Below, one piece after another: positions 26,421 to 50,271 of a stretch of DNA of 64,000 nt. The stretch comes from an uncultured bacterium (GTDB lineage Bacteria; Hinthialibacterota; Hinthialibacteria; OLB16), in assembly GCA_964481775.1 (NCBI GenBank), contig CAYZUX010000001.1:16840-80839 (forward strand), in the 5' to 3' direction. The notes under the pieces are model-generated. The model was given only the letters and a program-made list of their open reading frames with translations, made no database searches and was not told the DNA's origin. Each line of letters starts with the position of its first letter. The first letter of the stretch is position 1. The position numbers and the translations under genes are program-made.

Positions 26421-29183
26421 ATGTGGTGCATTCCATTATTATTGGCTGGTGTGGTGACAAGTACGACCATTGAGGTGGACAATGTCTTTCCCGGGAAGTC
26501 ATGGGAACAACGCAGTCCTGAATCACTGGGTATGAACGCAAACCTGCTTGATCAGCTGGCTGAACACCTGGGTGGAAGAGGCTGTGTCATCAAAAACGGC
26601 TATATCGTGAAGACATGGGGAGATCAAACCCAGATTGGTGACTGGGCTTCTTCGGCGAAACCTGTCTTAAGCACGCTCCTCTTCTTTGCTCTTCAGGAGG
26701 GTTTAATTAAGAGTGTAGACCAACCTATTGCAGATTTCGGTTGGAAACTCCAAAAGAAAGACCAGGGAATCACCTTTCGTCATCTTGGAAGTATGAGTAG
26801 TGGCTATGCCCGGCCTGAAGGACCTGGGGAGGCATGGGCATACAACGATTACGCGATTCAACTTTACCAGATGACTCTTTTTGATAAGGTCTTCAAAGAG
26901 GATGCAAGGAATGTGGCAGAGCACTCCAATCGATTGGGTGTGCTCAAATTCCAGGATGGCTTGACCTTCAGTAAAAAACGCCGCCTGTCCACATCGGTGC
27001 GAGATTTCTCACGTATCGTTTGGCTGTGGCTGAACAAGGGACGCTGGGGTGACAAGCAGCTCCTGCCTGCTGAATATTTCAACGAGTATATGAAACCACA
27101 AACACCCAAGGACCTGCCCCAGACCCGGAAAGCTGATACGGAAGATTACCTCGAAATCGGTTCATACGGCGGCGATTCTGACCATTTCAGTGATGATGGA
27201 CCTGGCACGTATGGTTTTAACTGGTGGTTTAATGACACAGGACGAACTCATCCCGACCGCCTCACCTGGCCCAGCGCCCCCCCTGATACGATCATGTCGA
27301 TAGGAGCAAGAGGAAATAGCAGCGCATTTATTCCGAGTATGAATGCGGCTCTGATTTGTGCGGATGGAAGCTGGAATAATGAAAACACAGATGAAACTCT
27401 CCGGTTATTTTCTTTAGCCTGCCGATCAGATCAACCTAAAGTGCAAATTAAGGGCGATCGAGTAAAATGGCAGCCGATCAAATTGCTTTTTGAAGGACCA
27501 ATGACCGCAGAGAGGGCTGAACCAAACCCCTTCATGAACTATCGATTGACGGTACGATTCACCCGGGATGGCCGTACTGTCGATGTTCCCGGGTATTACG
27601 CCGCGGATGGTAATGCGGCAGAAACGGGGGCGAATAGCGGCTCAATATGGAGTGTTAATTTCACCCCCGATGAAGAGGGGATTTGGAACTACGAAACAGA
27701 ATTCGTAACCGGCATGAAGATAGCCATTTCAGAAAAGACAACCACCGGTGTACCAGTAAGTTTTGATGGAGCTTCGGGATGCTTTGAGGTAAAACCAATC
27801 GATTCCAGTGCTCCCGGTTTTTACTCTAAGGGTATGTTGCGTGCGCAGGGTCATCGCTATCTCCAGTTCGCTGAGACTGGTGAGTATTTCCTAAAAGGTG
27901 GCACGGACAGCCCGGAAAACCTGTTGGCCTATTCTGATTTTGATGGAACCAAGCCCACTCACAAATATGGACCTCACGCGGCTGATTGGCGTCAGGGTGA
28001 TCCTCAATGGCAAAATGGCAAAGGTAAGAATCTGGTTGGCGCTCTTAATTATCTGGCGTCAAAAGGCATGAATTCGGTCTATTTCCTGACCATGAATGTG
28101 GGTGGTGATGGAAAGGATGTGTGGCCATGGATTGATACTGACGAAAAGGGCCGTTTTGATTGCAGTAAACTGGACCAGTGGGATATCATCTTTACACATA
28201 TGGATAAGCTGGGACTGCTAATGCATGTCGTGACTCAGGAACAGGAAAACGACCAACTACTAGATGATGGAAACCTTGGCGATGAAAGGAAACTATACTA
28301 CCGCGAGCTTGTTGCAAGATTTGCTCATCACCCGGCTGTTGTCTGGAATCTTGGGGAAGAGAATACCAATACAGACGAACAGCGTAAATCCTTTGCAGCC
28401 TATATCCGTATGTTGGATCCCTATCGTCATCCAATCGTGGTCCATACATTTCCTAGTCAATATAACAAGGTCTATGATCCTCTCCTTGGTTTCCCTCATT
28501 TCGATGGACCATCACTGCAGATGGGAGATATGAGGAAAACCCACGAGGAGACCCTCAAGTGGGTGATTCTCTCCGGGAAAGCCGGAAAGCAGTGGTTTGT
28601 CTGCCAGGATGAAATTGGGCCACCCAGTGTTGGAGTAAAGCCTGACAATGAGGATCCGGACCATTCTGATGTGTTGCGTCATGCGTTGTGGGGTAACCTG
28701 ATGGCGGGTGGTGCCGGGGCGGAATGGTTTTTCCAGAGCGATCTCCATACTGAAGACTGGAGAACAAGGGACAGGCTCTGGGAGAAGACCTTTTTCGCTC
28801 TCAACTTCTTCCAAAAACATCTCCCCTTTGCAGAGATGCAACCCCGTGACGACCTGGTGGCGGGAGAGGGTTCCTGGTGTTTGGCAAACGCTGGCGAGAT
28901 TTATGCAATCTACACCTCTTCTCCGGATAATTGCCAAATGCTGCTGGGTGAAGGGAATTACCGTGTTGACTGGTACAACCCAGTGAATGGTGGAGACCTG
29001 ATTCCAGGTGGTTCAATTGTGGGTGGAGGAGAACGCACATTTGGTCATCCGCCACATAATAGGTCTGAAACTTGGGTGATCCTGTTGCGGAAATTACGAG
29101 CTGGACAAATGGAAAACGAAAAGGGTATTGTTGATCTTTCTACCGAATACCCTGACCTGAATGTACATCCTGAAAAGCCTTGA
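26421..29183 (+). CDS. Secreted multidomain protein: beta-lactamase-fold serine-hydrolase domain plus GH140-like module (DUF5060, DUF4038 TIM-barrel, collagen-binding-like beta-sandwich)
   Basis: The N-terminal ~320 aa carry an S-x-x-K motif (WASSAKPVL) within a beta-lactamase-like context. Then comes a DUF5060-like segment (KWQPIKLLFEGP..NPFMNYRLTVRF..WSVNFTPDEEGIWNYE). Next is a clan GH-A TIM-barrel with an NE motif (VVWNLGEENT). The C-terminus has YRVDWYNPVNGG. Confidence 0.65.
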   Translation: MWCIPLLLAGVVTSTTIEVDNVFPGKSWEQRSPESLGMNANLLDQLAEHLGGRGCVIKNGYIVKTWGDQTQIGDWASSAKPVLSTLLFFALQEGLIKSVDQPIADFGWKLQKKDQGITFRHLGSMSSGYARPEGPGEAWAYNDYAIQLYQMTLFDKVFKEDARNVAEHSNRLGVLKFQDGLTFSKKRRLSTSVRDFSRIVWLWLNKGRWGDKQLLPAEYFNEYMKPQTPKDLPQTRKADTEDYLEIGSYGGDSDHFSDDGPGTYGFNWWFNDTGRTHPDRLTWPSAPPDTIMSIGARGNSSAFIPSMNAALICADGSWNNENTDETLRLFSLACRSDQPKVQIKGDRVKWQPIKLLFEGPMTAERAEPNPFMNYRLTVRFTRDGRTVDVPGYYAADGNAAETGANSGSIWSVNFTPDEEGIWNYETEFVTGMKIAISEKTTTGVPVSFDGASGCFEVKPIDSSAPGFYSKGMLRAQGHRYLQFAETGEYFLKGGTDSPENLLAYSDFDGTKPTHKYGPHAADWRQGDPQWQNGKGKNLVGALNYLASKGMNSVYFLTMNVGGDGKDVWPWIDTDEKGRFDCSKLDQWDIIFTHMDKLGLLMHVVTQEQENDQLLDDGNLGDERKLYYRELVARFAHHPAVVWNLGEENTNTDEQRKSFAAYIRMLDPYRHPIVVHTFPSQYNKVYDPLLGFPHFDGPSLQMGDMRKTHEETLKWVILSGKAGKQWFVCQDEIGPPSVGVKPDNEDPDHSDVLRHALWGNLMAGGAGAEWFFQSDLHTEDWRTRDRLWEKTFFALNFFQKHLPFAEMQPRDDLVAGEGSWCLANAGEIYAIYTSSPDNCQMLLGEGNYRVDWYNPVNGGDLIPGGSIVGGGERTFGHPPHNRSETWVILLRKLRAGQMENEKGIVDLSTEYPDLNVHPEKP

Positions 29184-29422: not shown

Positions 29423-31861
29423 CTATCGATAATAAGAGCAAGTTGTGATGGCGGATTTTATTTCTTGACGATATTGGTCGCCAATCTCTTCGGCTGATAA
29501 GTCTCTCGCGAAAAACTTGAACTCGTCCATCTGTCCGGAAAAGTATTGGCTTTTCAGAAAGTGAGGATTATAGCCGATACTGATTTCCTTGGCATTTGTT
29601 TCCAAAAGGGGATGAATTGAGATTTGTTCAATTGCCGAACCGTTCAGGTATAGTTTGAATGAATTATTATCCTTGACTACAGAAATATGATACCAGCAAC
29701 TGTTTTTCAGTTCATAACCTGATGTCAAGCAGGTTGTGTCTTGAATAATGCCAGCGTAGAGAATATTCCCGGTGATGAAAATTGTCAGAGGATCGTCATT
29801 CAGAGCACTGCGCGCTGAGACGATCGGCAAGCGGAAACCATCGGAAACAACCTCAGGATCCATTTCCTTAAGGCGAATCCATACGATAAATGTATAGTTT
29901 TCAATCGGGAAGTATGGAAGTCCATAACGAAGCCGGGAGGATTGACCATCAAATAGGATCGCACTGTCTTCGTTTCCGTTCCGATCGACCGCGGGTAAAG
30001 TTCCTGACTCTTCGAGAAGTTGACCTGTCTCAGGTGTTCCATCTCCATCAAGTGGTGATGCCAGAGCTAGTGCTTCTTCTCCCAACGACTTAATCCAAAG
30101 TTGACGGCGTGCACTGTTGATTTCCTGAAAGAAGGGAAGGGTGGATCCCATCTGGTCCATGGCAATAAGTGAGTCCCCTTTCCACATCATGTCTATTTTC
30201 CGGCCATTGAGGATTTCGCTTGTTTCGTATACCGGGAGAGGAAATCCGATCGAAATCACCTTGTTCAAGGGAGGATTCGATACCTTAAGATAATAGTCCA
30301 ATAGGGTCGTTGAGAGTAGGACGCCTTCGGAATGGACAGTGATTGTGTCACGATCTACCCAATCTGAAAGGCGTACATATAAATGACCAGGGGATTTGAC
30401 AACAATATTGAAATTATTTCCGTTTGGATATGGCGAGGTTACGGCTATGTCGTCATTCTCGAAACCGAAAAGAAGGTTCACATAATGATCTCCATTGATC
30501 CTCCTACAGCAATTCAATTTTATTTCCGCAACCTGAGCGATTCCTCCTGCCACGATGTCGAAAAAGAAGGCTCCATTGAAATAAGGATTCCTGGTTGCAA
30601 GATGCCCGTAGGGAGCGGGGAAACCATAGGCTCCCTTGCTGCGTCCCTTGACATTATAATAAGCATCGGGAGTTGGCGGATTTACATTATCGGGAACAAA
30701 ACTGTTATCAAGGAGCTGGGTTGGCAGGAGGTGGGCTCGCGTATATCGTTCAGCATCCTGATAGTATTGGGGAAATCCCCAATCTCCAAGGTGGAGTGCG
30801 GTGTGAATGATTTCACAGGTGTTATTGATTTCTCCGACATCGCTATTCATGCTTAAACGTTCTGGGTACCACCCTGTCTGGCTTGAATGTTCCTTCAGCC
30901 CATTATCGTAGAAGGCGCGGACACGTTCTTTCATAATGGGATCGTTTGTCACGGTTGCAACCTGTGCCAAAGCGCTCATCCTGCCGACGATCTCAAATCC
31001 ATGGTCTCCTCCTGAAATACTTCCATCGGCAGGGAAATCATAGGCCATGTGAATCCCTCCAAAGATTGAGGAAATTTCATAGGCCAGAGAGGAACCGGTC
31101 ACTTGCTGGTAACGGGATATTGACCAGGTTGCGAAAGGAAAGGAACGGACATTGGATGAACTTGGGCCAGGCCATGCAGGAGAACCTCCTGTGCCTCCAC
31201 CGATTAATCCGAATTTCTGTTGGAAAGCAAGCCAACTGAACCCGGGATTTACAAAATAGGAATTATAATTCGACAGAGATTCATTAAAGTACTCGATTGC
31301 TGTCGAATCATTCCGAAACTGAACAAGGCCCAGTAACCCTCGCATCCCTGCGCCATTATTGAAGATCCAACAGGTGTTGAAGGGCCCACCAATCGTGGAG
31401 GGATCCGCGGGGATTCCACGCACGAGGTTATATGAATCAAGTAAAACAGTTCGGTATTTTTCAAAGACAACGGGATCAAGAGGTTGTCCAAGTGCCTTTT
31501 CAGCCATGAGGAGAGCATATAAGGCTCTGCCTGTTACATTTCCTACGCTCAATTGGGAATGGAACTTCATTTGTGGCCGGGAAAGGACCCAGCATTCGAA
31601 GTAAGGTATGTTCCGATCCTGGGGATTCAAGATGTTCGACATACAGTGTATTCCCCATTTGAGCGCCAGATCCAGGTCCGTAGTATTAACTTCCAGTGGT
31701 TCGCTTCCTAATGATCCAGTTGACGGGAAAGACAATACCAGAAGAAAACATCCGTATAAAAGAACTGCATTCAAAAGCTGCTGACTGGTTTTGGGATAAT
31801 GGCCTGCAGGTGCTGTGAAAGCCGTTACAAGTGATATTCTTTTCATCGTTCTCCTGCTCAT
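29423..31861 (-). CDS. Secreted member of an uncharacterised putative glycoside-hydrolase family (paralogue a) with a C-terminal LamG domain
   Basis: Signal peptide present. Family blocks shared with the 543-aa and 630-aa paralogues: WGIHCMSNILNPQDRNIPYFECWVL, DVGEINNTCEIIHTALHLGDWGFPQYYQDAERYTRAHLLPTQLLDNSFVP and KGAYGFPAPYGHLA. The C-terminal ~170 aa form a LamG (DSAILFDGQSSRL...FSGQMDEFKFFARDLSAEEI). Confidence 0.6.
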   Translation of the reverse strand: MSRRTMKRISLVTAFTAPAGHYPKTSQQLLNAVLLYGCFLLVLSFPSTGSLGSEPLEVNTTDLDLALKWGIHCMSNILNPQDRNIPYFECWVLSRPQMKFHSQLSVGNVTGRALYALLMAEKALGQPLDPVVFEKYRTVLLDSYNLVRGIPADPSTIGGPFNTCWIFNNGAGMRGLLGLVQFRNDSTAIEYFNESLSNYNSYFVNPGFSWLAFQQKFGLIGGGTGGSPAWPGPSSSNVRSFPFATWSISRYQQVTGSSLAYEISSIFGGIHMAYDFPADGSISGGDHGFEIVGRMSALAQVATVTNDPIMKERVRAFYDNGLKEHSSQTGWYPERLSMNSDVGEINNTCEIIHTALHLGDWGFPQYYQDAERYTRAHLLPTQLLDNSFVPDNVNPPTPDAYYNVKGRSKGAYGFPAPYGHLATRNPYFNGAFFFDIVAGGIAQVAEIKLNCCRRINGDHYVNLLFGFENDDIAVTSPYPNGNNFNIVVKSPGHLYVRLSDWVDRDTITVHSEGVLLSTTLLDYYLKVSNPPLNKVISIGFPLPVYETSEILNGRKIDMMWKGDSLIAMDQMGSTLPFFQEINSARRQLWIKSLGEEALALASPLDGDGTPETGQLLEESGTLPAVDRNGNEDSAILFDGQSSRLRYGLPYFPIENYTFIVWIRLKEMDPEVVSDGFRLPIVSARSALNDDPLTIFITGNILYAGIIQDTTCLTSGYELKNSCWYHISVVKDNNSFKLYLNGSAIEQISIHPLLETNAKEISIGYNPHFLKSQYFSGQMDEFKFFARDLSAEEIGDQYRQEIKSAITTCSYYR

Positions 31862-31879
31862 TTACTGATTCGACGAAAC

Positions 31880-32758
31880 CTAACCTTTCAGGCCGCTCAT
31901 CACCATTCCCTGGATGAAATAGGTCTGAAAGACGAAAAAAACGATAAGGCAGGGAAGAAGAACCATAGCTGAGGCCGCCATCAGGGTGTGGAGATAAACA
32001 CCACCGTAAAAGTAATTCTGGTAGAAGCTGAGTGCCAGTGCAAGGGTACGTTTATTTTCGCTGGAAACATAAATCAGTGGACCCATGAAATCATTCCAGG
32101 CTCCCATGAAAGAGAAAATCGTGACTGTGATCAGGGCTGGCCTGGAAAGTGGCAATGCGATATGACGGAAAGTTGCAAAGAACCCGCATCCATCAATTCG
32201 TGCGGCATCCTCAAGTGCGCTTGGGAGTCCCTTGAAGAATTGCCGGAAAAGAAAGATAAAGAAAGCATTCCCGAAAAAGGCTGGAATGTAGAGTGGCAGG
32301 AGAGTATCGATCCATCCAAGATACACGAACAGAGTGAATGTCGGGATCATGGTCACTTGTACGGGTAACATCAGGGTGGCAAGGGACAAGAGGAAAAATG
32401 TATCACGTCCTTTCCAACGGAGCCTGGCGAAGCTGTAGCCAGCCAGCGAGCAAGAAAAAAGGCTGCCGGTAATTGTCAGTGCAGTCACCCAGATCGTGTT
32501 CCAGAGATATTGGAGGAAAGGCCACTCGACAATCACATCCCGGTAGTTCTCCCAACGTGGATGGTCCGGGATCCATTTGGGAGGATAAATAAAAACTTCT
32601 CCAGCATCTTTGATTGATGTACTGAGCATCCAGACAAAGGGCATGAGAAAGGTTGCTGCCCCGAGAATGAGGAGGAGATAGGCAACCCAGTCTCCAAAGG
32701 TGCGGAGTGGTCCTGTTGATGGAGCAGGTTCGTTTGGGGAATAGTCCTTAGTCCTCAT
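31880..32758 (-). CDS. Carbohydrate ABC transporter permease (MalG/UgpE-type)
   Basis: EAA-loop LEDAARIDGCGFFATFRHIALPLSRP with 6 TM segments. The track ORF extends to 32779; the Met at 32758 avoids overlap with the upstream stop. Confidence 0.85.
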   Translation of the reverse strand: MRTKDYSPNEPAPSTGPLRTFGDWVAYLLLILGAATFLMPFVWMLSTSIKDAGEVFIYPPKWIPDHPRWENYRDVIVEWPFLQYLWNTIWVTALTITGSLFSCSLAGYSFARLRWKGRDTFFLLSLATLMLPVQVTMIPTFTLFVYLGWIDTLLPLYIPAFFGNAFFIFLFRQFFKGLPSALEDAARIDGCGFFATFRHIALPLSRPALITVTIFSFMGAWNDFMGPLIYVSSENKRTLALALSFYQNYFYGGVYLHTLMAASAMVLLPCLIVFFVFQTYFIQGMVMSGLKG

Positions 32759-33635
32759 AATATACCCAGTGTTTTGCAAGTAAGAAATTCAGGAGAGTCA
32801 GGCCAAACACGACCAGAAAGAAAAGCCATGCCAGCGCCGAGGCATATCCCATCTGGAGCCACTCAAAGGCATTCCTGTAGACATACAGAACAAACATCAG
32901 AGTGGCATTGGCCGGGCCACCATTGGTCATGATGGCAGCCTGAGTGAAAACCTGGAAGGAACCGATAACTCCCATGATGATGGTGAAAAAAAGAACTGGA
33001 GAGAGCATCGGAAGTGTCACATGCCGGAAAAGGTTCCATCGTCCTGCACCATCGATCAAAGCCGCTTCGTAGAGATAAGGAGGGATCGTCTGCAGACCGG
33101 CCAGGTAGATGACCATCGCCCCACCGATCCCCCAAAGGCTCATCAGGATGAGGGCGGGAAGTGCCCAGACTTCACTGGTCAGCCAGCCAGGTGTTGGCAA
33201 GGAAAAAAACCTGAGAATTGTATTGGCAAGACCAAACTCTGGATTGTAAATCCACTGCCAGAGCATCGCGACAGCGACGCCGGAAATGACAGATGGGAGA
33301 TAGTAAATGGTCCTGAGAATATATCGCCCAGGACAAGGACGATTCAAGCCAACAGCGATCAGCAGAGCCAGGGACAGACCCAGAGGGACACTGACAATGG
33401 TATAGAGAGATGAGACCATCAGTGATTTTCGAACAAGGGGGTCATCAAAAATCAGCTTGGTGTAGTTTCCAAGACCTACCCACTCAGGAGGTGAAAGCAG
33501 GTTCCAGTCAGTCAGGCTGATAAAGAAGGATGCCACTACAGATCCTCCAACAAAAAGGAGAAGTCCCAGGATCCATGGCAAGACAAACAGGATACCGGCG
33601 ACTTGTTCTTTCGTCCTGAGCTTTTGCAATGTCAA
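32748..33635 (-). CDS. Carbohydrate ABC transporter permease (MalF/UgpA-type)
   Basis: EAA-loop YEAALIDGAGRWNLFRHVTLPMLSP; polytopic membrane protein. Confidence 0.85.
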   Translation of the reverse strand: MTLQKLRTKEQVAGILFVLPWILGLLLFVGGSVVASFFISLTDWNLLSPPEWVGLGNYTKLIFDDPLVRKSLMVSSLYTIVSVPLGLSLALLIAVGLNRPCPGRYILRTIYYLPSVISGVAVAMLWQWIYNPEFGLANTILRFFSLPTPGWLTSEVWALPALILMSLWGIGGAMVIYLAGLQTIPPYLYEAALIDGAGRWNLFRHVTLPMLSPVLFFTIIMGVIGSFQVFTQAAIMTNGGPANATLMFVLYVYRNAFEWLQMGYASALAWLFFLVVFGLTLLNFLLAKHWVYYED

Positions 33636-34987
33636 TTGACTCCTCCACGTTGAAGGATTTCATCCACCTTGGGGACGATCACATTGACACACTCGGTTGC
33701 GGATTTCTGGCCCAGCCAGAAGAGGTCCAATTCGACAGGTAACAATGTCTCACATATTTTTTGTGCCTCCAGATGTAACACATCTCCAGGACGAGCTTTC
33801 TTGATGTCCGCGATACGGCATTCCGCATGGTTTTCAGGTACACCCTGTGGATGCCAGAAACCGGGATCGCGAGCCAGTCCTTCGCGTGATGGAATCCACA
33901 ACGCGAAATCACCGAGCATCCTTTGAGCTTCCGGGCTTTGGTAATATTTTACCAGCTCCCAGGATTCCTCCGGGTGTTTAGTGTCCGCCTTGATCCCATG
34001 CCCACAGATCCTGACTGCAACCGCGAATTTCTTTCCCCGGGGTACCGGGGCCATTCCCCAGGAGAAACTTTTGATGCTGCGGAATTGTTCGATCATCCAG
34101 CTGCCTTCGATTTCCATCGCGATCTTTCCGGTCATGAAATCTCCACCCAGTGCACCTGCCTGAACCGGGTTTGGACTGGCATGATCCTTGTGGATCAGAT
34201 CCTGGAGGAAGGTAAGAGCCTCGAGTGCCTGAGAGGTTCCCAGGAGGCATCTGGTGGGTGTAACCATCCGATCAAACAGTTCTCCTCCATTCTGCCAGAC
34301 GAAATTCAGCCAGAATCCCCACCAGGGGGAAAGATTCGTTCCAAACTGGAGTGGCCTTTCCCCCTCAAACAGTGTCAGCTGTATGGCTGCTCTTCTGAAA
34401 GTTTCCCAATCCCAGTTCTCATCGGGATAGGCGATCCCGGCTTTATCAAAGATGTCCTTGTTGTAGTAAAGGTGAAAAGTGACCGGGCCAAGGGGGCAGA
34501 TCAGTGTTTCCCCATGATAGGAATATGACTCCTCACAGTACTTGATTAAAGAATCGTCTTCTCGCAGAAAGTCCTTTCTGGTTTGTCTCTCACTCTCGAT
34601 AAAGGGACGTAGACTGAGAAGGCGTTTGTTTTCATACAAAGCAACAGCTTGCCATGCAGTGAGCCACATCACATCCGGAGCCACCCCGGCCGCGTTCAGG
34701 ATCTGAAGCTTTGTGTTGTACTGAGCACCCGGGATATGCATGATCTCGACATTAATATCCGGGTGCGACTCCATGAAAGCTGCGACAATCCGCCTGTTTA
34801 TGGTCATCTCCTCTGGGCTTCCCCAGGTGGAGAACTTGATGGTCACGCTCCTTGGATGAGAGAGAAGATCAATGGAATCTCGTGAACACGAGCTCAAGCA
34901 TGCCGCCAGGATGACAATAACTGGAATACCAGTCTGTGTTGCAGCAGACTGGCCTGACCTTCCCATATCCGCTACGAGCCCTCTCAT
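33632..34987 (-). CDS. ABC transporter extracellular solute-binding lipoprotein (family 1, sugar)
   Basis: Lipobox VILAAC|LSSC. The architecture and size match the SBP_bac_1 family. There is a 4-nt overlap with the downstream permease. Confidence 0.8.
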   Translation of the reverse strand: MRGLVADMGRSGQSAATQTGIPVIVILAACLSSCSRDSIDLLSHPRSVTIKFSTWGSPEEMTINRRIVAAFMESHPDINVEIMHIPGAQYNTKLQILNAAGVAPDVMWLTAWQAVALYENKRLLSLRPFIESERQTRKDFLREDDSLIKYCEESYSYHGETLICPLGPVTFHLYYNKDIFDKAGIAYPDENWDWETFRRAAIQLTLFEGERPLQFGTNLSPWWGFWLNFVWQNGGELFDRMVTPTRCLLGTSQALEALTFLQDLIHKDHASPNPVQAGALGGDFMTGKIAMEIEGSWMIEQFRSIKSFSWGMAPVPRGKKFAVAVRICGHGIKADTKHPEESWELVKYYQSPEAQRMLGDFALWIPSREGLARDPGFWHPQGVPENHAECRIADIKKARPGDVLHLEAQKICETLLPVELDLFWLGQKSATECVNVIVPKVDEILQRGGVN

Positions 34988-34996
34988 GACCCAATT

Positions 34997-36628
34997 CTAG
35001 TATTGTTTTCCTTGGCATACAGCCTCTCGCACATGAGCATGGCCAAAGAATGGCAGGAAAATCCCTGTGGGATCCATGGCGATAACCTGGTTTCCCTTCC
35101 AGTTGACCCGATAGGATCGACCATTGATCCACTCCTCGGACCACCTGTGACTGGAATGAAAGTCTACGTGAAAAACCGCTGGGCCTTTTCCAAGCAGAAG
35201 GTAACCATTATCGAAGCGTGACGGAATCGGTTTTTCAAGTTGACTTGCCTTGATGCTCCGATGGTCGACCCAGTTTGGAATTCGAATCTTGCAGAACTGG
35301 TTAGTGAGTACCTCAATGGTGATTCGATCACCAGCTGGAAATAGCGATCGAACAATGATTTCGGGTGAGGTATGATCAACGAGCAGATTAACGGTCAGGT
35401 CCAAACTCTTGTCGATTACCTTGTTGGCAACCATGCACAAAGCCTGCACTCCTCCACAGGTGATGTCGAAGTTAAAATTGAGGAAATCTGTACCAAGTGC
35501 CTGATGTCCATAGGGGGCTGGAAATCCAAATGCACCGCGTACCCTTGAGGGAATATCTTTTTCGAAATCACCCGCCGGGTCGCTGACTTGTTGAATCCAG
35601 TCCGTATCCAGTAATTGTGAGGGAATCACATGCGAGCGGAGCATCAGTTCCACATCCTCATAATAGTGAGGAGACTCCCAGCAAGCCAGATGAAGTCCTG
35701 TCTGCATGATATCGCCTGTGTTGTTGATTTCGCCCACATCAAGATCGTTTTCCAGATTCTCCTTGGACCAGCCCAGTGTAGACATGATCTTTCCATCAAA
35801 AGTCCCCTTATAAAGAACACTGACCTGTGTTTTCAGGTTCGTTTCATCGAGAACCTCCGCCAGGAGGGCAAGTGAACTGATGGTTGAAGTGATGGAGTGA
35901 ACATGCCATCCAGCCTTTTCATTGGCCCGGCCTTCCTTGTCGAAGCACTCACGCAGCACGGCAAAACGGAACCTTTGTGCCAGGTCCAACGCCTGCTCGT
36001 TTCCCGTTGTTGTGTAGTATTTGACGAGTGACCCGATCAGTCTTCCTGATGTGGAGGTCAGGTACCTGTCATGCCGGACTACATCACCGAGTGGAAGATA
36101 CTCCTCGTAGGTTGACCATCTCCCGCGATTCCAGGAGCCATCGGGATCCACAAGGCCAGAGAGACGCTGTATCATCCTGTCACCAAAAGCGCGTGCCTGT
36201 TGGTCATCACGGAACCGGACCAGCGCATTTAATCCCTGCAAGCCTTCACGCAGATTGTGGAAAGCCACCCGTTTCTGGTGCAGTTTTTCATCATAATATC
36301 CATTCAGCCCATCCTCACCGGCAAATGAAGTCAGCAGAGCGGATCGATAATCTTCTACAACAGTTTCATCAATTTCGATGGGAAAAGTATTCTCAGCAAG
36401 CAGCAGCGCATCCAGAGCACGGCCCGGCATGTGGGATATATCAAAGAAGGGGATATGGTAGAAATGAGGGCGTGAAGCCAGGAGCGCAACCCCAAAGTAG
36501 GGAATCCTGCCCTTGTCAGGATCAAAAACCTGGGATATGTTGCCAACTGCAGCCTTTACGGTTTCCGAAAGATGGACGATTGCCATACCGGTCATCCTGT
36601 TATTGGAATGAGCGAGCTTCTTGCTCAC
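34997..36628 (-). CDS. Cytoplasmic paralogue (b) of the uncharacterised putative glycoside-hydrolase family
   Basis: No signal peptide. It shares LDVGEINNTGDIMQTGLHLACWESPHYYEDVELMLRSHVIPSQLLD and RGAFGFPAPYGHQA with the flanking paralogues. Confidence 0.6.
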   Translation of the reverse strand: MSKKLAHSNNRMTGMAIVHLSETVKAAVGNISQVFDPDKGRIPYFGVALLASRPHFYHIPFFDISHMPGRALDALLLAENTFPIEIDETVVEDYRSALLTSFAGEDGLNGYYDEKLHQKRVAFHNLREGLQGLNALVRFRDDQQARAFGDRMIQRLSGLVDPDGSWNRGRWSTYEEYLPLGDVVRHDRYLTSTSGRLIGSLVKYYTTTGNEQALDLAQRFRFAVLRECFDKEGRANEKAGWHVHSITSTISSLALLAEVLDETNLKTQVSVLYKGTFDGKIMSTLGWSKENLENDLDVGEINNTGDIMQTGLHLACWESPHYYEDVELMLRSHVIPSQLLDTDWIQQVSDPAGDFEKDIPSRVRGAFGFPAPYGHQALGTDFLNFNFDITCGGVQALCMVANKVIDKSLDLTVNLLVDHTSPEIIVRSLFPAGDRITIEVLTNQFCKIRIPNWVDHRSIKASQLEKPIPSRFDNGYLLLGKGPAVFHVDFHSSHRWSEEWINGRSYRVNWKGNQVIAMDPTGIFLPFFGHAHVREAVCQGKQY

Positions 36629-36654
36629 TTGTGACTGTCATCTCAAAAAAATAC

Positions 36655-38442
36655 TCACTGATATGTTTTCCATGTATCGACGATGGATGGAATGAAGATC
36701 TCCTTGAAGAAGGGGAGAGGACAAGCCATCTGATTCATCGCCGCGACAGAATCCCCACGCCAGAGAATTGTAATCTGCCTGTCATTGATCGTTTCTGTTT
36801 CGAGCCTGAAGGGAATGTCCATCTGGATCGTGAATGTATCTCCAACAGGCAGGTCAGACAGGATCAGGAAAAGACCCTCAAACTGTTTCTCGGGCGTATT
36901 TTCGAGGCCGGTAACTTTCAGAGTATCCCGGTTAACCCAGGAGGGTAGTCTCACATGCAGGTCACCGCCCACCCGGAGCGTGACCTCAACTGCATTTCCA
37001 TTGGGGTAGGGGCCTTTTACCAGGATCTGGCTATTATCCTGATCAAAAAGCATGAGCAGGTAATGGTTCCCATCCTGAAACTTGTAGGAATGCTTAATAA
37101 CTTCTGAAAGCGAAAGTGCCCCTCCAGCCACGATATCCATGTGAAAGGCACCCTGATGCCTGGAGTTCTTGGTTGCGATGTGACCATAGGGCGCGGGAAA
37201 ACCGAATGCTCCCTTGGTCCGCTCCTTGATGTTATCTTTTGAATCATTCAGGTCGGAGTGTGCGGCCACGAAGGAATTGTCCAACAGCTGGGATGGAAGC
37301 AGGTGAGCACGAGTGTACCGTTCGGCATCTTCATAATATTCAGTCCATCCCCGGTCGCCAAGAATCATGGCGGCTTCGGCGAGTTCTCCAGTTGTGTTTA
37401 CCTCTCCGGTGTCACTCTGGCTGCGAGTATTTTCTGGCACCCATCCGGTTGAGCTGCGAACAACTCGAAGTCCATTATCGTACCGGGCCCGGGCCCGGTT
37501 CATCATGGTCGCATCCCCTATCTCAAGCGCAACTCTGGCAAGCGCATTCATCTCGCGGGTTGGGCCTAACATGAAAAATGTATTGGCGGGTAAAGAACCA
37601 TCCTCCGGGAATTTCAGTGACATGAGGTTATTCGCATAGATCTGGCACATTTCGAGAGATGGGGCGTATCCAGTTGCCTGATAGTATTCCAGGAAGGCGA
37701 GAACACAGGTGGAGTCAGTTCCATAGCCGGGACTACCCTGTGGCCAGCCCTGTCCCAGTATGCCTCCTGTAGTGGGAAGATTGAAATGTTCCCGGAAGGC
37801 AGCCCAACTATAGCCGGCGTCAACAAAATAAGTTTTGAGATTCGCGATTCCTTCCTCCATCAGGTCCCCGGCGGCTGTGTCGTTACGGTATTTGACGAGG
37901 GCAGCCAGGGCGCGCATGGCATGGCCATTGATTGCCCAGTAGGTGTTATAGGGTGCACCCACTGCATCGGGAGCCGCGCAGACACCCGGTACGGGGCTGA
38001 ACGAATCAAAGACCACCTGCCGGTAACGTTCGATTACCAATGGATCGACTGGCAGGCCTGTGGCAGCTTCTGTAATCAAGAGGGCCTGTAATATCTTTGC
38101 CGCGTTGACCGGCACACTGTAATAGGCGTTGTATAGCATGTAGGGAGGGTTCTGAAGCACATAACAGTCGAAATATGGAATGTAGCGGTCCTGAGGATTC
38201 TGAACATTAGACATGCAATGAATGCTCCATTGCAAAGCGAGACGAAGATCATGATCGTTTATTTGTACTGGATCGACAGCATGTGCGCCCATTGGAAATC
38301 CGGCAGCACTGATGACAATCAGCCACTTCACGCATCCTGCAGGGTTGTCCCCCCATGAGAAAATCCCCCACTCCAAATGAAGACCTTTTCCCCGGGTGGA
38401 GAGAGCGGATCCTTGGTCAATGACTTGCGAGGCCTTTCTCAT
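36655..38442 (-). CDS. Secreted paralogue (c) of the uncharacterised putative glycoside-hydrolase family
   Basis: Shares WSIHCMSNVQNPQDRYIPYFDCYVL, SDTGEVNTTGELAEAAMILGDRGWTEYYEDAERYTRAHLLPSQLLDNSFV and KGAFGFPAPYGHIA. The track ORF runs to 38547 and overlaps the pseudopilin gene. The Met at ~38442 precedes a signal peptide (KWLIVISAAGFPMGAHA) and is the likelier start. Confidence 0.6.
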   Translation of the reverse strand: MRKASQVIDQGSALSTRGKGLHLEWGIFSWGDNPAGCVKWLIVISAAGFPMGAHAVDPVQINDHDLRLALQWSIHCMSNVQNPQDRYIPYFDCYVLQNPPYMLYNAYYSVPVNAAKILQALLITEAATGLPVDPLVIERYRQVVFDSFSPVPGVCAAPDAVGAPYNTYWAINGHAMRALAALVKYRNDTAAGDLMEEGIANLKTYFVDAGYSWAAFREHFNLPTTGGILGQGWPQGSPGYGTDSTCVLAFLEYYQATGYAPSLEMCQIYANNLMSLKFPEDGSLPANTFFMLGPTREMNALARVALEIGDATMMNRARARYDNGLRVVRSSTGWVPENTRSQSDTGEVNTTGELAEAAMILGDRGWTEYYEDAERYTRAHLLPSQLLDNSFVAAHSDLNDSKDNIKERTKGAFGFPAPYGHIATKNSRHQGAFHMDIVAGGALSLSEVIKHSYKFQDGNHYLLMLFDQDNSQILVKGPYPNGNAVEVTLRVGGDLHVRLPSWVNRDTLKVTGLENTPEKQFEGLFLILSDLPVGDTFTIQMDIPFRLETETINDRQITILWRGDSVAAMNQMACPLPFFKEIFIPSIVDTWKTYQ

Positions 38443-38521
38443 CCCGGTGTACCCGAATTCCTTTAAGACTGGGGCGGCATCAATCGTGTGGCTCACGCTT
38501 GATGCCCAAACCAAAACTGGT

Positions 38522-39124
38522 TCAGAACTGATAACCTCTCCCTCCAAAGTATTTCAGGTCGCCATTACTGTCCGTTCCATTGGTTGGATTATATGGGATA
38601 GGTCCTTGAGGTGGACTCAAACGGGCTCCACTGAAACGATCATTATCACGGTCAGGTCCCCAGCCACGCATCTGGTAAGGTGCGCGAATCATTCTTCCCT
38701 GTATATCGTAAAACTCGATGAGTGCTCCTTGGGCCAGGTCATCATAAAGGAAGTAATCAAAGGTTCTGAACTCATTGTATGGCGGCTGTTCGCCATTGCC
38801 ATTAAAGATGTCATCGGGGACGATAGACATGTACTTCACTGGTGTAGTCAAAGGGACAAGTCGTTGGAGGTAGCTTTTGAAATTTCCCGGTGTCTTGTTG
38901 ATGACTCCGGAGATGTACTGCTGGTAATCACCGCGATAAGCCTCGAGTGCTGTCGCCACTGACCTCATATCAGCATAATTGCGTGTTATTTTGGCGCGTA
39001 CTTGAGCTGAAAGAAAGTTGGGAAGCGCAATCGCGATCAGTATGAGAATAATGGCGATGACGATCAGCAACTCGATCAGGGTAAAACCACGGCGGGACAA
39101 CACGATTAGAACCTCCTTCTGCAT
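38522..39124 (-). CDS. GspG-like pseudopilin / prepilin-type N-terminal cleavage-methylation domain protein (paralogue 2 of 3)
   Basis: MQKEVLIVLSRR|GFTLIELLIVIAIILILIAIALPNFLSAQVRAKITRNYADMRSVATALEAY with C-terminus NPTNGTDSNGDLKYFGGRG. The track ORF begins 17 codons upstream at 39175. A start at 39124 would give a 12-aa leader like that of paralogue 1. Confidence 0.85.
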   Translation of the reverse strand: MQKEVLIVLSRRGFTLIELLIVIAIILILIAIALPNFLSAQVRAKITRNYADMRSVATALEAYRGDYQQYISGVINKTPGNFKSYLQRLVPLTTPVKYMSIVPDDIFNGNGEQPPYNEFRTFDYFLYDDLAQGALIEFYDIQGRMIRAPYQMRGWGPDRDNDRFSGARLSPPQGPIPYNPTNGTDSNGDLKYFGGRGYQF

Positions 39125-39202
39125 ACAACTCTTTGACTTGGGAAAAAACTGGCTGGAAGTGGGGAGGGTGATCAAACCGGCCCACTTCCAGCCAGCAAAA
39201 GT

Positions 39203-40696
39203 TCAATAAAGTGACCAGTTACCAACCGAGGATGCCGGACTTGATTTTTGGTATGCACCGATGTCCGGAGTTGTGCCGCGTGGATTTCCCTCCACATCAG
39301 TGGCGATCCCCAGGTTCAAACCAGCAGCGATTGCGGGTGACCCCTCCTGTAGATGCAGGTCACCAGTTGCCTCGGGGTCGACAAACAATGGGTAGTTTAC
39401 CTGCGCGGTGTTGTATGTGTAATGGGCGCCGCGGGTGACATTGAGAATGCTTGTCGAGAAATCCCTCGCATTAGCCGAGTTGAAGATGGAATAGTCAACA
39501 TCGTAGGAAATCGATGTGGCCGAGCCGTATGTCGGCGAGACCTCCCAGGAGAATCCATTCGGTGTCCGCAAGATTGAGTTCCGGATTGTGGCGGTTGGAT
39601 TGTGGATTGTCAAACGTTGAGCCATCACCGAGTCGTTAATATTATTCACGCTGCAATGGTGCATGGTGATATTTCCACACGGCTCATGGATGTAAACACC
39701 CTCATTCGCGAAAACTGCAATGGCAACGTTCTCAAGAAGAATATTGGAGTTGTAGCCGAGGAACAGGCCAGTCCCCGCCCGATAGGCAGTCAGATCGTTG
39801 ATCATCTCACAACGGCGAATAATGAGGTTGGCTGGGCCTGTATTCGAATCCGGATAGGCATTGGTGAAAATACCATGTCCCGTCCAGTCGTTGAAGGTGC
39901 AATCCTCAAAGAGTACCGTGCTGTTGGGTGCCCAGTTGGGGGAATCAAAACGCAGAGCGATGCCGTATTCACCACCAAAGTGTGTGAAGGTGCAGTGCTG
40001 AACGGTCAGGTTGCCCATGCGATTCTGCGCGGCGCTGGGAGTTCCAGTTTCATTAGCCATGAGACGGATCGGATGACCGATATTCGAGAAGTTGCAATTC
40101 TGAATGGTCACGCCCGCATATCCGAATGTGCTGGTTACGCCACCTATCTCCACACCTGATGAAGCGTTTCCATTACCGAAATCACGCGGTGTTGCATCAT
40201 GCAGGTTACAGTTCGTGAGGGTGGGTTTGCCACCGTTATAGACGTCGATGATCCTCCCGGCGCCAAAAAGGTCAAGGTGATCCATAACAACCGTGGCTCC
40301 CTCGTAGACGGAGACACAGGCACGGTATTCGATGCCGTTATTGGCACTCATATCCACGGAGAGATTTTTAAGAGTGATATTCGAGGATTGATTGGCAATG
40401 TAGATGCCCTGATTCACCGCATTGGAGGCGGAAATCTTGACCACCGCGGGGGTTCCCGCGGCTGGTCCTTGCAGAGTCAGATTGCTTCTGCCAATGATCC
40501 CAACCCAATTGTCGTAATCACCAGCGGCGATATCGATTGTATCACCGTTGTTCGCGGCAGCTACCGCATCTGAAATAAGTGCAAAGTCATAGGTGGGTGG
40601 CCCGGCTGGCCCCACCGTCACTGTCGCTGCGAATCCGGGAGCAGCTCCAAACGCCAACACCAATGCCCCTATCCAAACACCTCTTCGACCGATCAT
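39203..40696 (-). CDS. Secreted right-handed parallel beta-helix protein
   Basis: Signal peptide MIGRRGVWIGALVLAFGAAPGFA. Coils include NITLKNLSV, TLTNCNLHD, TIQNCNFSN, TVQHCTFTH, LFEDCTFND, IIRRCEMIN and TMHHCSVNN. The C-terminus has GNPRGTTPDIGAYQ, typical of beta-helix proteins. Confidence 0.8.
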   Translation of the reverse strand: MIGRRGVWIGALVLAFGAAPGFAATVTVGPAGPPTYDFALISDAVAAANNGDTIDIAAGDYDNWVGIIGRSNLTLQGPAAGTPAVVKISASNAVNQGIYIANQSSNITLKNLSVDMSANNGIEYRACVSVYEGATVVMDHLDLFGAGRIIDVYNGGKPTLTNCNLHDATPRDFGNGNASSGVEIGGVTSTFGYAGVTIQNCNFSNIGHPIRLMANETGTPSAAQNRMGNLTVQHCTFTHFGGEYGIALRFDSPNWAPNSTVLFEDCTFNDWTGHGIFTNAYPDSNTGPANLIIRRCEMINDLTAYRAGTGLFLGYNSNILLENVAIAVFANEGVYIHEPCGNITMHHCSVNNINDSVMAQRLTIHNPTATIRNSILRTPNGFSWEVSPTYGSATSISYDVDYSIFNSANARDFSTSILNVTRGAHYTYNTAQVNYPLFVDPEATGDLHLQEGSPAIAAGLNLGIATDVEGNPRGTTPDIGAYQKSSPASSVGNWSLY

Positions 40697-41260
40697 TATT
40701 CGTACTCCTTAGCCAAGGGTTTTCTCCCGTCGTGCGGGATACGGTCCACCTCTGATGGACAACTCTACCAGGCACCTCGCATGCAAAACGTGAACGTTAA
40801 TGTTCTGGAATTATGTTTATCGTTCCTGTTTTGGATGTCAAGAAGAAATCCCGAAAATCTTCGAAATCAACCTTGAAAAGTTTCATAACCATCGTAAAAT
40901 GAATAGGATAATGATTAGTCCCAACTGGATGAGGGCTTTCTTTCAAAAGGTGGATACTCATGGGAATCGACCTACTGAGGCTTGGATAAAACCTTGGAAA
41001 AAGTCAAAAAGAGAATTAACGTTTAGCACATTCTCATAGGTTTTTTCCATATTACCCATCTGAGAGAGGCTGTTTCCAATAATCCGTGGAGAAAGGTATT
41101 TCGTTGATATCAACAATCAGGAGGGATTTTAGGAGGATTATTTGACTCGATGGTTTTTCTCCCTGTGTTGACAACGTTAATCTCCCTTAAGTAATGTATT
41201 CCCCACACACATCAGGAAGAGCTGTTCCGAGGACCACGGGAAACGTTTTTTTGGAAAGTC

Positions 41261-43423: not shown

Positions 43424-43424
43424 G

Positions 43425-44330: not shown

Positions 44331-44335
44331 TGTGG

Positions 44336-45718: not shown

Positions 45719-45788
45719 CCTATCAGGAATGAGTCAGGAAAGGAATTCTCCAGTATGTGGGCCTTCACGATTGGATTTCTCAGTTCGA

Positions 45789-47768: not shown

Positions 47769-47838
47769 GGGCGATAAATCGTATCATCCCAACTGGTGGA
47801 GAGGTTGAATGGATGAATCCCGCTTTTGAGCATACAAC

Positions 47839-49596: not shown

Positions 49597-49656
49597 GATT
49601 AATCCTCCATTCGACCATTTTACTATCCATCTGCTCATTTCCATGAGTCATCTCAG

Positions 49657-50231: not shown

Positions 50232-50271
50232 TCTGGTTATCCTCTTTTTCCATCTGTTTGTCTGGCACGGA

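Follow-up and report, generated by a model that had tools for sequence, protein, structure and literature searches.

An operon with three paralogues distantly homologous to GH127/GH146 around a carbohydrate importer

Operon organization and a divergent LacI-family gene

The window, a 64-kb stretch of DNA from a Sumerlaeota-like bacterium, contains an operon of eight co-directional genes on the (−) strand, running from 40696 to 29423 with intergenic gaps of 0–80 bp. The first gene (39203–40696) encodes a 497 aa, probably exported right-handed beta-helix protein, and it is followed by genes for a 200 aa pseudopilin or type IV pilin-like protein (38522–39124), paralogue c (595 aa, 36655–38442), paralogue b (529 aa, 34997–36586), the solute-binding protein of a carbohydrate ABC transporter (33632–34987), two ABC transporter permeases (permease 1, 32748–33635; permease 2, 292 aa, 31880–32758) and paralogue a (807 aa, 29423–31846). 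Open reading frames, Pfam domains and the gene calls of the source contig, which include the pseudopilin and permease 2, bear out the gene order and coordinates of the original prediction. The operon is kept in three Sumerlaeota/BRC1 genomes at 45–95% identity, each with two to four copies of the paralogue family.

The solute-binding protein and two permeases form a CUT1-type set from which an ATPase gene is absent within the operon. The solute-binding protein matches SBP_bac_1 (E 5e-31) and SBP_bac_8 (E 1e-24) in Pfam, with weak matches to carbohydrate-binding SBP models in NCBIfam, and is probably a lipoprotein, as its N-terminus (...IVILAACLSSC) includes a lipobox-like L-A-A-C. Both permeases match Pfam BPD_transp_1 (E 5e-16 for permease 1, E 1e-19 for permease 2). 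The pseudopilin matches Pfam N_methyl (E 9e-7), its similarity to the NCBIfam GspG and PilA models is confined to the N-terminal segment and falls under the model cut-offs, and orthologues are found in the relatives L014 (92% identical) and L004 (58%). The beta-helix protein has a signal-like N-terminus, MIGRRGVWIGALVLAFGAAPGFAA, and matches Pfam Beta_helix (PF13229, E 8.5e-17) and the NCBIfam choice-of-anchor Q model (E 1e-8). A word-indexed protein search with it as query returned two matches only. Its AlphaFold (AF2) model is poor (pLDDT 55.6), and Foldseek with this model gave generic beta-helix matches only (GH87, GH110, PL6, adhesins and tailspikes), all at E values of at least 4e-4.

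Divergent from the operon lies a gene for a LacI-family transcription regulator (41261–42301, (+) strand; Pfam LacI, Peripla_BP_1 and Peripla_BP_3), which is probably the regulator of the operon; a LacI gene also adjoins the beta-helix operon in relatives L014 (95% identity) and L004/L015 (56%). The divergent intergenic region holds three copies of AACGTTAAT, at 40793–40801 (+), 41015–41023 (−) and 41173–41181 (+), and these are the only exact matches in the whole 64-kb window, where 0.28 would be expected; at least three copies occurred in 0 of 100 shuffles. The first copy sits inside an imperfect palindrome, TGAACGTTAATGTTC. We consider the three copies candidate LacI operators.

Three paralogues, three subfamilies

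Paralogues a, b and c are homologous, as had been predicted, with blastp similarity far past chance in all three pairs (a–c, 43% identity, E 7e-149; a–b, 30%, E 1e-62; b–c, 27%, E 5e-57). The conserved blocks that had been proposed to unite them held to differing extents. Block W.IHCMSN..NPQDR.IPYF is found in a and c, but only IPYF remains in b. The core of the second block, D.GE.N.T ... YY.D.E...R.H..P.QLLD, is present in all three, though the block had originally been written one position short, and in the third block KGA is not shared by b, which has RGAFGFPAPYGH there. Paralogue a carries, after its subfamily A module, a C-terminal LamG or concanavalin-like domain (Laminin_G_3, E 2.3e-15, residues 649–793 on an 812-aa ORF), and against the PDB it matches the S-layer domain structure 4qvs (E 5e-6). 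Paralogue c has a weak match to PF20736, the GH127 middle domain (E 0.032).

Paralogues a and c, together with their orthologues, begin with Sec-like hydrophobic segments of 17–20 residues (c, CVKWLIVISAAGFPMGAHA; a, LLNAVLLYGCFLLVLSFPS) with a maximum Kyte-Doolittle 12-mer score of 1.8–2.7. The conserved domain of paralogue b and its orthologues begins at the N-terminus, with no hydrophobic segment. Tat signals occur on many other family members. Judged by hydrophobicity heuristics, a and c are probably exported and b is probably cytoplasmic. On this reading, a conserved operon sets exported a and c and cytoplasmic b around a sugar importer, as had been predicted.

The three paralogues belong to three separate subfamilies, A, B and C, with b in B, the main clade. 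Six positions on three inner helices distinguish the subfamilies: 110, 113, 114, 182, 228 and 230. Subfamily A has the signature F110 G113 A114 F182 H228 F230, which is also found in P0143, P0149, P0167, P0188 and others, and subfamily C has I110 G113 H114 T182 F228 L230, also found in P0138, P0139, P0144 and P0150. Subfamily B has H228-x-H230, an HxH motif that is not retained in a or c. W273, E276, E286, Q324, R348 and D374 are held by all three subfamilies. The proposal that the same linkage is processed outside and inside the cell is weakened by this pattern, in which a presumed catalytic core is shared but six inner-helix positions differ.

Distant homology to GH127/GH146 and loss of the zinc-cysteine site

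At curated thresholds, the paralogue family lies outside all Pfam-A and NCBIfam models. PF07944 makes contact with 11 of 43 members and PF20736 with 6 of the 43, at scores below or near threshold. The family comprises about 500–1400 clusters at 50% identity, and we found no literature on it. The AF2 model of paralogue b (pLDDT 93.6) consists of an (alpha/alpha)6 barrel and one beta-sandwich, and its top whole-length Foldseek matches are GH146 and GH127 (E 2e-15 to 5e-12, 12–15% identity); the next family is GH88 (E 2e-7). A profile HMM of the family matches GH127 structure 4qjy (E 1.1e-6) over both the barrel and the beta-sandwich, and hhalign aligns family and GH127 at 97% probability (E 1.3e-10, 455 columns). 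The family is a distant homologue of GH127/GH146. The original prediction that it falls in no named family stands at curated HMM thresholds but not by profile or structure comparison, and by fold the family is no orphan (Foldseek E 2e-15). GH127 is among the families whose detection had been named beforehand as counting against novelty. Relatedness to it was found; confident membership was not, because Pfam scores fall short of threshold and the zinc-cysteine centre that defines clan GH-P is missing. We rejected assignment to GH127/GH146 on these grounds and on the absence of the third domain, and the paralogues are a plausible candidate for a new carbohydrate-enzyme family.

We located the GH127 reference residues E322, E338, C340, C417 and C418 in HypBA1; they are invariant across five GH127 sequences. 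Among 121 family sequences there is no conserved cysteine in regions 276–300 or 348–372, and cysteine reaches at least 30% at columns 14, 234, 318 and 384 only; no invariant cysteine is common to the three window paralogues. All three zinc-ligand cysteines of the Zn(Glu-Cys3) site, including the nucleophile, are replaced, and a different chemistry is therefore needed. That the paralogues are ordinary, if divergent, GH127/GH146 beta-L-arabinofuranosidases with a zinc-activated cysteine nucleophile is contradicted by these data and barely credible, even though GH127/GH146 account for all the Pfam signals and are closest among solved structures, and GH127 genes commonly adjoin CUT1 ABC importers. 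According to PMC10850190, Zn-Cys coordination is what members of clan GH-P have in common, Pfam scores stay under the gathering cut-off, and the third GH127 domain is absent.

Residue-level confidence in the alignment of the catalytic loops to GH127 is low, and in the N-terminal half the HMMER and hhalign alignments are offset from each other by one hairpin. For this reason, the equivalences of E276 and E286 were drawn from helix register rather than superposition: E286 is taken to correspond to the zinc-ligating Glu of GH127 (HypBA1 E338), and E276 is probably the acid/base Glu, near E322. Some twenty polar residues show complete or near-complete conservation and cluster at the barrel mouth; conserved polar positions lie at the N-terminal ends of the six inner helices and in loops 263–286 and 321–372. 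In the model, the conserved blocks are placed as six-hairpin active sites are, at inner-helix N-termini and adjoining loops.

One alternative is that the paralogues are AGE-type sugar epimerases or isomerases, which would act on the reducing end of imported oligosaccharides, converting one sugar into another with no bond cleavage. The family profile matches cellobiose 2-epimerase 5zhb (E 9e-4), an hhalign comparison with four AGE sequences reaches 88% probability (E 2.8e-6), and H228-x-H230 of subfamily B aligns with the HLH motif and E276 with the Glu of YGHDIE. However, the first catalytic His (YGH) is aligned to invariant W273, the second (PYH) has no counterpart, the HxH motif is lost in a and c, and whole-length structure and profile scores prefer GH127/GH146. 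We regard an AGE-type activity as quite improbable.

Genomic context and a proposed role in glycan breakdown

Elsewhere, one family member lies inside a SusC/SusD locus with GH32, and other members neighbour GH123_N-like, heparinase II/III-like, GH36, UxuA-like and MR_MLE genes. Sulfatases adjoin members in 19 of 80 loci, and the cytoplasmic clade neighbours heparinase II/III-like genes in 9 of 80 loci and UxuA-like, SDR and MR_MLE genes in 12 each. Drawn from related sponge-symbiont clusters, these counts do not represent independent observations. The cytoplasmic clade also has recurrent neighbours not obviously linked to glycans, among them genes for gamma-glutamyltranspeptidase, a DAO-type oxidase, PhyH and peptidases. 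Gamma-glutamyltranspeptidase, M28 and M55 peptidases and an acetyltransferase beside some cytoplasmic members could point away from carbohydrates, to a non-catalytic binding or scaffold role or to another six-hairpin class (terpenoid-cyclase-like or LanC-like) acting on peptides or lipids. Such a role is very unlikely given the conserved polar residues at the barrel mouth, the occurrence of members in sugar ABC-importer operons, the SusC/D locus and glycosidase or sulfatase clusters, the LamG fusion of one copy and the absence of LanC-type Cys/His zinc ligands.

The heparinase II/III-like, sulfatase, UxuA-like, SDR and MR_MLE neighbours fit catabolism of uronates or sulfated glycans, and the beta-helix is the fold of many lyases. 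On this alternative, the family would be functionally analogous to the GH88/GH105 unsaturated uronyl hydrolases: the beta-helix protein would serve as polysaccharide lyase, and the three paralogues would hydrate and release the non-reducing-end 4,5-unsaturated uronate of its products. The beta-helix protein gives hints of a lyase in a weak Pectate_lyase_4 match (E 0.017) and in PL6 and fucoidan-lyase structures among its Foldseek matches, but these matches are generic and derive from a low-confidence model. No family member matches Glyco_hydro_88 (PF07470) at E ≤ 0.01, no counterpart of the GH88/GH105 catalytic Asp could be placed, KduI/KduD-type genes are missing from the window operon, and the neighbour statistics carry the dependence noted above. 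We judge this alternative unlikely.

The best explanation, to which we assign a probability of roughly 0.55, is that the family and the GH127/GH146 cysteine glycosidases are sisters that diverged long ago and that the locus is a LacI-controlled glycan-utilization operon, whose paralogues act as non-cysteine glycosidase-type enzymes outside and inside the cell with the importer between them. Catalysis would be carboxylate-based, by the invariant E276/E286 pair aided by D283, H319, H361 and D374. The beta-helix protein possibly attacks the polymer first, after which exported a, with LamG as a binding module, and c would trim or cut the glycan, either periplasmically or on the surface of the cell. 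Oligosaccharide products would be imported by the solute-binding protein and two permeases, and cytoplasmic b, in which one half of the pocket differs and is lined by His, Arg and Glu, may complete their breakdown.

Compared with known systems, the GH88/GH105 hydrolases and the GH76 alpha-1,6-mannanases are single-domain and show no sequence-level signal to the family, with no match to PF07470 or to a GH76 model. Enzymes of the AGE superfamily (N-acylglucosamine 2-epimerase, cellobiose 2-epimerase, mannose isomerase and YihS) are likewise single-domain and mostly cytoplasmic, whereas the family adds a beta-sandwich, exported forms (two of the three copies here) and a LamG fusion. GH127 (HypBA1, Ara127N, BT1003, BT3674) and GH146 (BT0349, Bll3HypBA1) are closest: they share with the family an architecture in which the (alpha/alpha)6 barrel comes first and a beta-sandwich follows, a conserved Glu opening inner helix 5 (E286, taken as HypBA1 E338) and a Glu near the acid/base position (E276, near E322), and both groups are often encoded beside CUT1 sugar importers. 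The family differs in having N288 at the C340 position and an invariant GFPAPYGH loop in place of the CACCP loop, in retaining the sugar-binding histidines in subfamily B only, and in its length, about 520 aa against about 650 aa, because the second, C-terminal beta-sandwich is missing. At the level of the locus, a similar logic is seen where glycosidase genes flank a CUT1-family carbohydrate ABC importer, for instance in the beta-arabinooligosaccharide cluster of Bifidobacterium (HypBA1/HypBA2): one or more enzymes are exported, two permeases serve a solute-binding protein, and an enzyme from that family or a related one works inside the cell (PMC10850190; bioRxiv 10.1101/2020.03.26.009860). 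The operon described here differs from that cluster in adding a pseudopilin and a beta-helix protein, in having no ATPase gene, and in that all three of its enzymes are paralogues of one uncharacterized family.

Three paralogues in a glycan-uptake operon

The original prediction described a minus-strand, pseudopilin-containing operon with three paralogues, and this gene observation was confirmed. Eight ORFs run head to tail on the minus strand from 40696 to 29423 with gaps of 0-80 bp, a layout with which the gene calls of the public source contig (JGI 3300022664 Ga0247854_1002026) concur. Likely starts from those calls give a pseudopilin of 200 aa, paralogue c (36655..38442, minus strand) of 595 aa, paralogue b (34997..36586, minus strand) of 529 aa and paralogue a (29423..31846, minus strand) of 807 aa, the last with a C-terminal Laminin_G_3 domain (Pfam). 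The first ORF (39203-40696, minus strand) encodes a right-handed beta-helix protein with a choice-of-anchor-Q tail (Pfam and NCBIfam). The pseudopilin is a prepilin-type N-methylation protein (PF07963, E 9e-7; TIGR02532, 32.9 bits against a cut-off of 16.3 bits) with a prepilin cleavage/methylation motif followed by a hydrophobic helix, RRGFTLIELLIVIAIILILIAIALP; it scored below the cut-offs of the full-length GspG and PilA models, having the N-terminal methylation segment alone in common with known pilins. Between b and a lies a CUT1-type importer set identified with Pfam, consisting of a family-1 solute-binding protein (SBP) with a lipobox-like LAAC (SBP_bac_1, E 5e-31) and two BPD_transp_1 permeases (E 5e-16 and 1e-19). 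There is no ATPase ORF for this importer between 29423 and 40696, and a gene for the ATP-binding subunit is also absent from the syntenic operons of loci L004, L014 and L015. CUT1 systems often share an ATPase encoded elsewhere.

The three paralogues are unambiguously homologous, with identities of 43% between a and c (E 7e-149), 30% between a and b (E 1e-62) and 27% between b and c (E 5e-57). The conserved blocks originally quoted for them are essentially right, except that the first is found in a and c only, the second was written one wildcard position too short, and in the third paralogue b has R in place of K. In a, c and their orthologues a hydrophobic segment of 17-20 residues precedes the domain start, (D/N)VNT(T/x)D(I/L), and b and its orthologues start directly at this motif, so that two exported copies and one cytoplasmic copy, as first proposed, are a reasonable assignment. 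Many other members of the family carry textbook twin-arginine (Tat) leaders (SRRKFLAGSAALAL...), one of which matches Pfam TAT_signal. Clear examples include P0023, P0031, P0038, P0046, P0104, P0120 and members at L042, L046 and L063, among others. Because N-termini differ in this way across members, the family is predicted to occur in cytoplasmic, Sec-exported and Tat-exported forms, and the Tat leaders hint that these proteins may fold, and perhaps bind a metal or cofactor, before export.

A LacI-family regulator (41261-42301) is encoded divergently from the operon, separated from the beta-helix gene by a 565-bp intergenic region. This region holds all three exact copies of the 9-mer AACGTTAAT in the 64-kb window (40793-40801, 41015-41023 and 41173-41181), where 0.28 would be expected, and the first copy sits inside the palindrome TGAACGTTAATGTTC, making the three sites candidate LacI operators. 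A promoter and terminator scan of the operon returned sites no more numerous than in shuffled sequence. The beta-helix protein is very narrowly distributed: a word-indexed search of 5.8 billion clustered proteins matched only itself and one 85% orthologue, and orthologues at 44% identity were found in Sumerlaeota genomes. Its AlphaFold2 model is poor (pLDDT 55.6) and its Foldseek matches are generic (E >= 4e-4: GH87, GH110, PL6, fucoidan lyase, capsule depolymerases and the adhesin PfbA); it may be a lyase, a hydrolase or an adhesin.

A neighbouring pseudopilin operon (42521-53820, minus strand) matches the layout of the family operon, with genes for an 1182-aa protein, a pseudopilin, 601-aa and 659-aa proteins, an SBP and two permeases. 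Pfam gave no match for the 1182-aa and 659-aa proteins and, for the 601-aa protein, sub-threshold CIA30 and rhamnosidase-C hints alone; the 659-aa and 601-aa proteins were ruled out as family members (hhalign probability 0.2% and 1.3%). Elsewhere in the window, a 920-aa protein (26421-29183, plus strand) has an N-terminus weakly resembling beta-lactamases, DUF5060, and a catalytic domain with a sub-threshold match to GH140 apiosidases; a 2026 preprint reports a new family of beta-agarases with remote similarity to GH140 (bioRxiv 10.64898/2026.05.19.726164). A 662-aa protein (23991-25979, minus strand) joins an FGE-sulfatase (formylglycine-generating-enzyme-like) domain to a BNR_2 sialidase-like beta-propeller, an unusual combination.

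Distribution and genomic neighbours of the family

The word-indexed search returned 229 relatives of the paralogues, every one labelled 'hypothetical', and the nearest named relatives belong to Candidatus Sumerlaeota. In an exhaustive profile search against 1.84 billion cluster representatives, 2094 proteins passed E <= 1e-3, of which 1414 reached E <= 1e-10 and 514 reached E <= 1e-30, which puts the family at about 500-1400 clusters at 50% identity. Scanning one genome for each of 185,579 species yielded 464 loci, the best 80 of which come from Sumerlaeota/BRC1, Poribacteria, Latescibacterota, Chloroflexota/Dehalococcoidia, Gemmatimonadota, Opitutales, Spirochaetia, Terriglobia, Planctomycetota, Armatimonadota and Pedobacter. 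Phyla with the family include Sumerlaeota, Latescibacterota, Poribacteria, Chloroflexota, Gemmatimonadota, Verrucomicrobiota, Planctomycetota and Bacteroidota. Many of the best 80 loci are in metagenome-assembled genomes; isolate labels such as RHO, COS and SB06xx presumably denote sponge-microbiome studies. Literature searches found nothing specific on a cysteine-less GH127-like family, nor on pseudopilin-linked glycan operons in Sumerlaeota.

The operon itself is conserved. In an uncultured bacterium (L014), whose proteins are 71-95% identical, the order is LacI, beta-helix, pilin, c, b, SBP, two permeases, a and one further a-like copy; in two Sumerlaeota genomes (L004 and L015, 44-71% identical) it is LacI, beta-helix, pilin, b, SBP, two permeases and three a-like copies. 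On a BRC1 contig, b occurs together with an SBP and one permease. At a different kind of locus, in Larkinella rosea (L003, RQJO01000016.1), a Tat-type member belongs to a SusC/SusD locus that also encodes three BNR_2 proteins, a GH32, an MFS transporter and a DHDPS-type lyase; this species is cultured, so the family would be genetically testable there.

Clustering the genes around 80 loci, most of them from subfamily B (the one containing b), gave counts that are not independent, the clusters being phylogenetically and syntenically related: sulfatase at 19/80, GFO_IDH_MocA at 14/80, SDR, MR_MLE and UxuA-like proteins at 12/80 each, GH123_N/GHL6-like at 10/80, PhyH and heparinase II/III-like at 9/80 each, and gamma-glutamyltranspeptidase and GH36 with NPCBM at 7/80 each. 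These neighbours point to catabolism of sulfated or acidic glycans as a class, not to a particular substrate. A recurrent cluster was also seen around subfamily-B members of several phyla (L005, L007, L027, L028, L056 and others, from Gemmatimonadota, Latescibacterota and Poribacteria metagenome-assembled genomes), in which the family member is accompanied by a DAO-type oxidase, a sulfatase, GH123_N/GHL6-like, UxuA-like, PhyH and MR_MLE proteins, an unknown 444-aa protein, a gamma-glutamyltranspeptidase and a heparinase II/III-like protein. The labels of several of these genomes resemble those of sponge-microbiome studies. The recurrence of the cluster across phyla suggests horizontal spread of one pathway.

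Fold, conserved residues and subfamilies

Direct HMM annotation (Pfam, NCBIfam and phmmer against the PDB) gave sub-threshold GH127 signals at most. An AlphaFold2 model of paralogue b, built from a 43-sequence alignment, was confident (pLDDT 93.6, pTM 0.93); in it, residues 1-390 make up an (alpha/alpha)6 barrel of twelve helices, and residues 395-505 a beta-sandwich. In Foldseek against the PDB, the top matches were GH146 (5opj, 6yqh, 8qf8) and GH127 (3wrf, 4qk0, 6ex6, 5mqo), over the whole length at E 2e-15 to 5e-12 and 12-15% identity. GH88 was the next family (E 2e-7). We consider a GH88/105-like role as an unsaturated-uronyl hydrolase unlikely. The family profile matched GH127 Ara127N in barrel and sandwich alike (E 1.1e-6), as well as BT3674 (7e-5), a cellobiose 2-epimerase (9e-4) and HypBA1 (2e-3). 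For hhalign, full-length comparison sequences of GH127 (five) and of the N-acylglucosamine 2-epimerase (AGE) superfamily (four) were taken from annotated plasmids by tblastn. The family aligned to the five GH127 sequences with 96-97% probability (E about 1e-10, 312-455 columns), the 455-column alignment (97%) spanning the sandwich too, and to the four AGE sequences with 88% probability (E 2.8e-6). Together, the Foldseek, profile and hhalign results make the family a distant homologue of the six-hairpin glycosidase/epimerase superfamily. Its closest relatives are GH127 and GH146, with which it uniquely has the barrel-plus-sandwich architecture in common.

An alternative reading is AGE-like epimerase or isomerase chemistry. 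The (alpha/alpha)6 barrel is present in the family, and hhalign places its E276 (paralogue b numbering throughout) on the Glu of the AGE YGHDIE motif. In the same moderate-confidence alignment (88% probability), the catalytic His of YGH falls on W273, an invariant residue, and this speaks against epimerase chemistry of the AGE type; the PYH histidine lies outside the barrel alignment. We consider this chemistry rather improbable.

When mapped on the AlphaFold2 secondary structure, the conserved polar residues group at the N-termini of six inner helices (R56 and E65; H110, N111, R113 and E114; R182; H228 and H230; E286 and N288; D374) and in two loop clusters (W273, E276 and D283; H319, Q324, D327, D340, R348, Y359 and H361). 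Because these are the positions where six-hairpin enzymes bind substrate, the conserved blocks are unlikely to be purely structural, and a non-carbohydrate or non-catalytic role for a family with such residues is highly improbable. The original interpretation is partly supported: the family is unnamed, its glycan-uptake operon coherent and its conserved residues active-site-like, on a fold that is not new.

Comparison of 25 divergent members separated three subfamilies. Subfamily B comprises b, other cytoplasmic forms of roughly 520 aa and Tat forms, with H110, N111, R113, E114, R182, H228, H230 and D292. Subfamily A comprises a and other multidomain proteins of 775-1064 aa, with F/Y110, G113, A114, F182, H228, F230 and E292, and subfamily C comprises c and other proteins of 575-603 aa, with I/V110, G/A113, H114, T/M182, F/H228 and L/Q230. 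W273, E276, D283, E286, N288, R317, H319, Q324, D327, D340, R348, Y359, H361 and D374 are kept in all three. We read this pattern as a probable catalytic half common to the subfamilies and divergent substrate-recognition halves, which would imply the same chemistry on differing substrates or subsites. This refines the earlier idea that all three copies act on the same linkage.

Comparison with GH127 and GH146

Activities in GH127 and GH146 (clan GH-P) are retaining beta-L-arabinofuranosidase, aceric-acid hydrolase or anhydrogalactosidase. What defines the clan mechanistically is a Zn(Glu-Cys3) site that holds the nucleophilic cysteine (PMC10850190). By aligning a GH127 sequence to HypBA1 we located E322 (GESF), E338 and C340 (GETCAS), C417 and C418 (CACCPAN) and the sugar-binding H142, H194 and H270, all invariant in the five GH127 sequences. 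The Zn2+ site of HypBA1 consists of E338, C340, C417 and C418, with one Cys as nucleophile, whereas the family keeps the Glu alone (E286). In its 121-sequence alignment, cysteine reaches 30% only at columns 14, 234, 318 and 384, with none near 276-300 or 348-372; at column 384 paralogue a has Ala and paralogue c Ser, and no invariant cysteine is common to the three window paralogues. The register of inner helix 5 was the same by hhalign and by eye (G291-D292-I293 against I339-G340-L341 of the GH127 sequence L009), and from such helix-register reasoning, on which the residue equivalences with HypBA1 are based, we infer that E286 (100% conserved) is the counterpart of the Zn ligand Glu338 and that N288 (98%) replaces Cys340. 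In place of the GH127 CACCP loop the family has an invariant GAFGFPAPYGH loop. In a gapped, low-confidence stretch of the hhalign alignment, the invariant E276 comes to within two columns of the acid/base Glu of GH127 (HypBA1 E322).

GH127 and GH146 proteins have three domains and about 650 aa, including a second C-terminal beta-sandwich that is absent in the family: the model of b has a single sandwich, which finishes near residue 505 of 529, and hhalign extends the match no further than GH127 residue 578 of 649. Against PF07944 (gathering score 24.9 bits), paralogue b reached 18 bits (E 0.0015) and a and c had no match, c matching PF20736 alone (E 0.032); 11 of the 43 relatives matched PF07944 at E <= 0.01, the best at 1.2e-7. 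Because the Zn-Cys site is lost, PF07944 is sub-threshold and the second C-terminal sandwich is missing, we reject membership of GH127/146. Homology to GH127/146 is accepted. That these proteins are ordinary GH127 enzymes is scarcely credible. Within the GH127/GH146 lineage the family forms a two-domain offshoot without the cysteines, a conclusion on structure and homology that we hold with very high confidence.

Our main reading, to which we give a probability of roughly 55%, is that this offshoot performs a non-cysteine glycosidase-type reaction centred on E276 and E286, and that subfamily A and C enzymes would act outside the cell and the subfamily B enzyme inside, around the CUT1 importer. 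A bolder version, which we regard as tentative and somewhat doubtful, would make these proteins a new family of glycoside hydrolases (or lyases) whose GH127/146 scaffold has exchanged its Zn-thiolate nucleophile for a centre of the invariant E276 and E286 plus H319, H361 and D374, with A (LamG-fused and exported), C (exported) and B (cytoplasmic or Tat-exported) jointly dismantling a glycan that no known CAZy family handles. Under this version the centre may bind a metal through a remodelled set of His and carboxylate ligands, in keeping with the many Tat-exported members, and the glycan could be a sulfated or acidic one from microbial mats or sponges.

Should the proteins prove active, a new CAZy family would be established, with roughly 500-1400 clusters at 50% identity in phyla about which little is known. 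The three-subfamily operon, with its two exported enzymes, its importer and its cytoplasmic enzyme, offers a ready-made experimental system. If they are inactive or ordinary epimerases, this is a routine 'hypothetical protein' family with a known fold. Activity would, in addition, make clear how GH127/146, with their unusual cysteine-glycosidase scaffold, are related to ordinary carboxylate chemistry, and would supply an evolutionary intermediate for a mechanism that has to date been described in clan GH-P alone.
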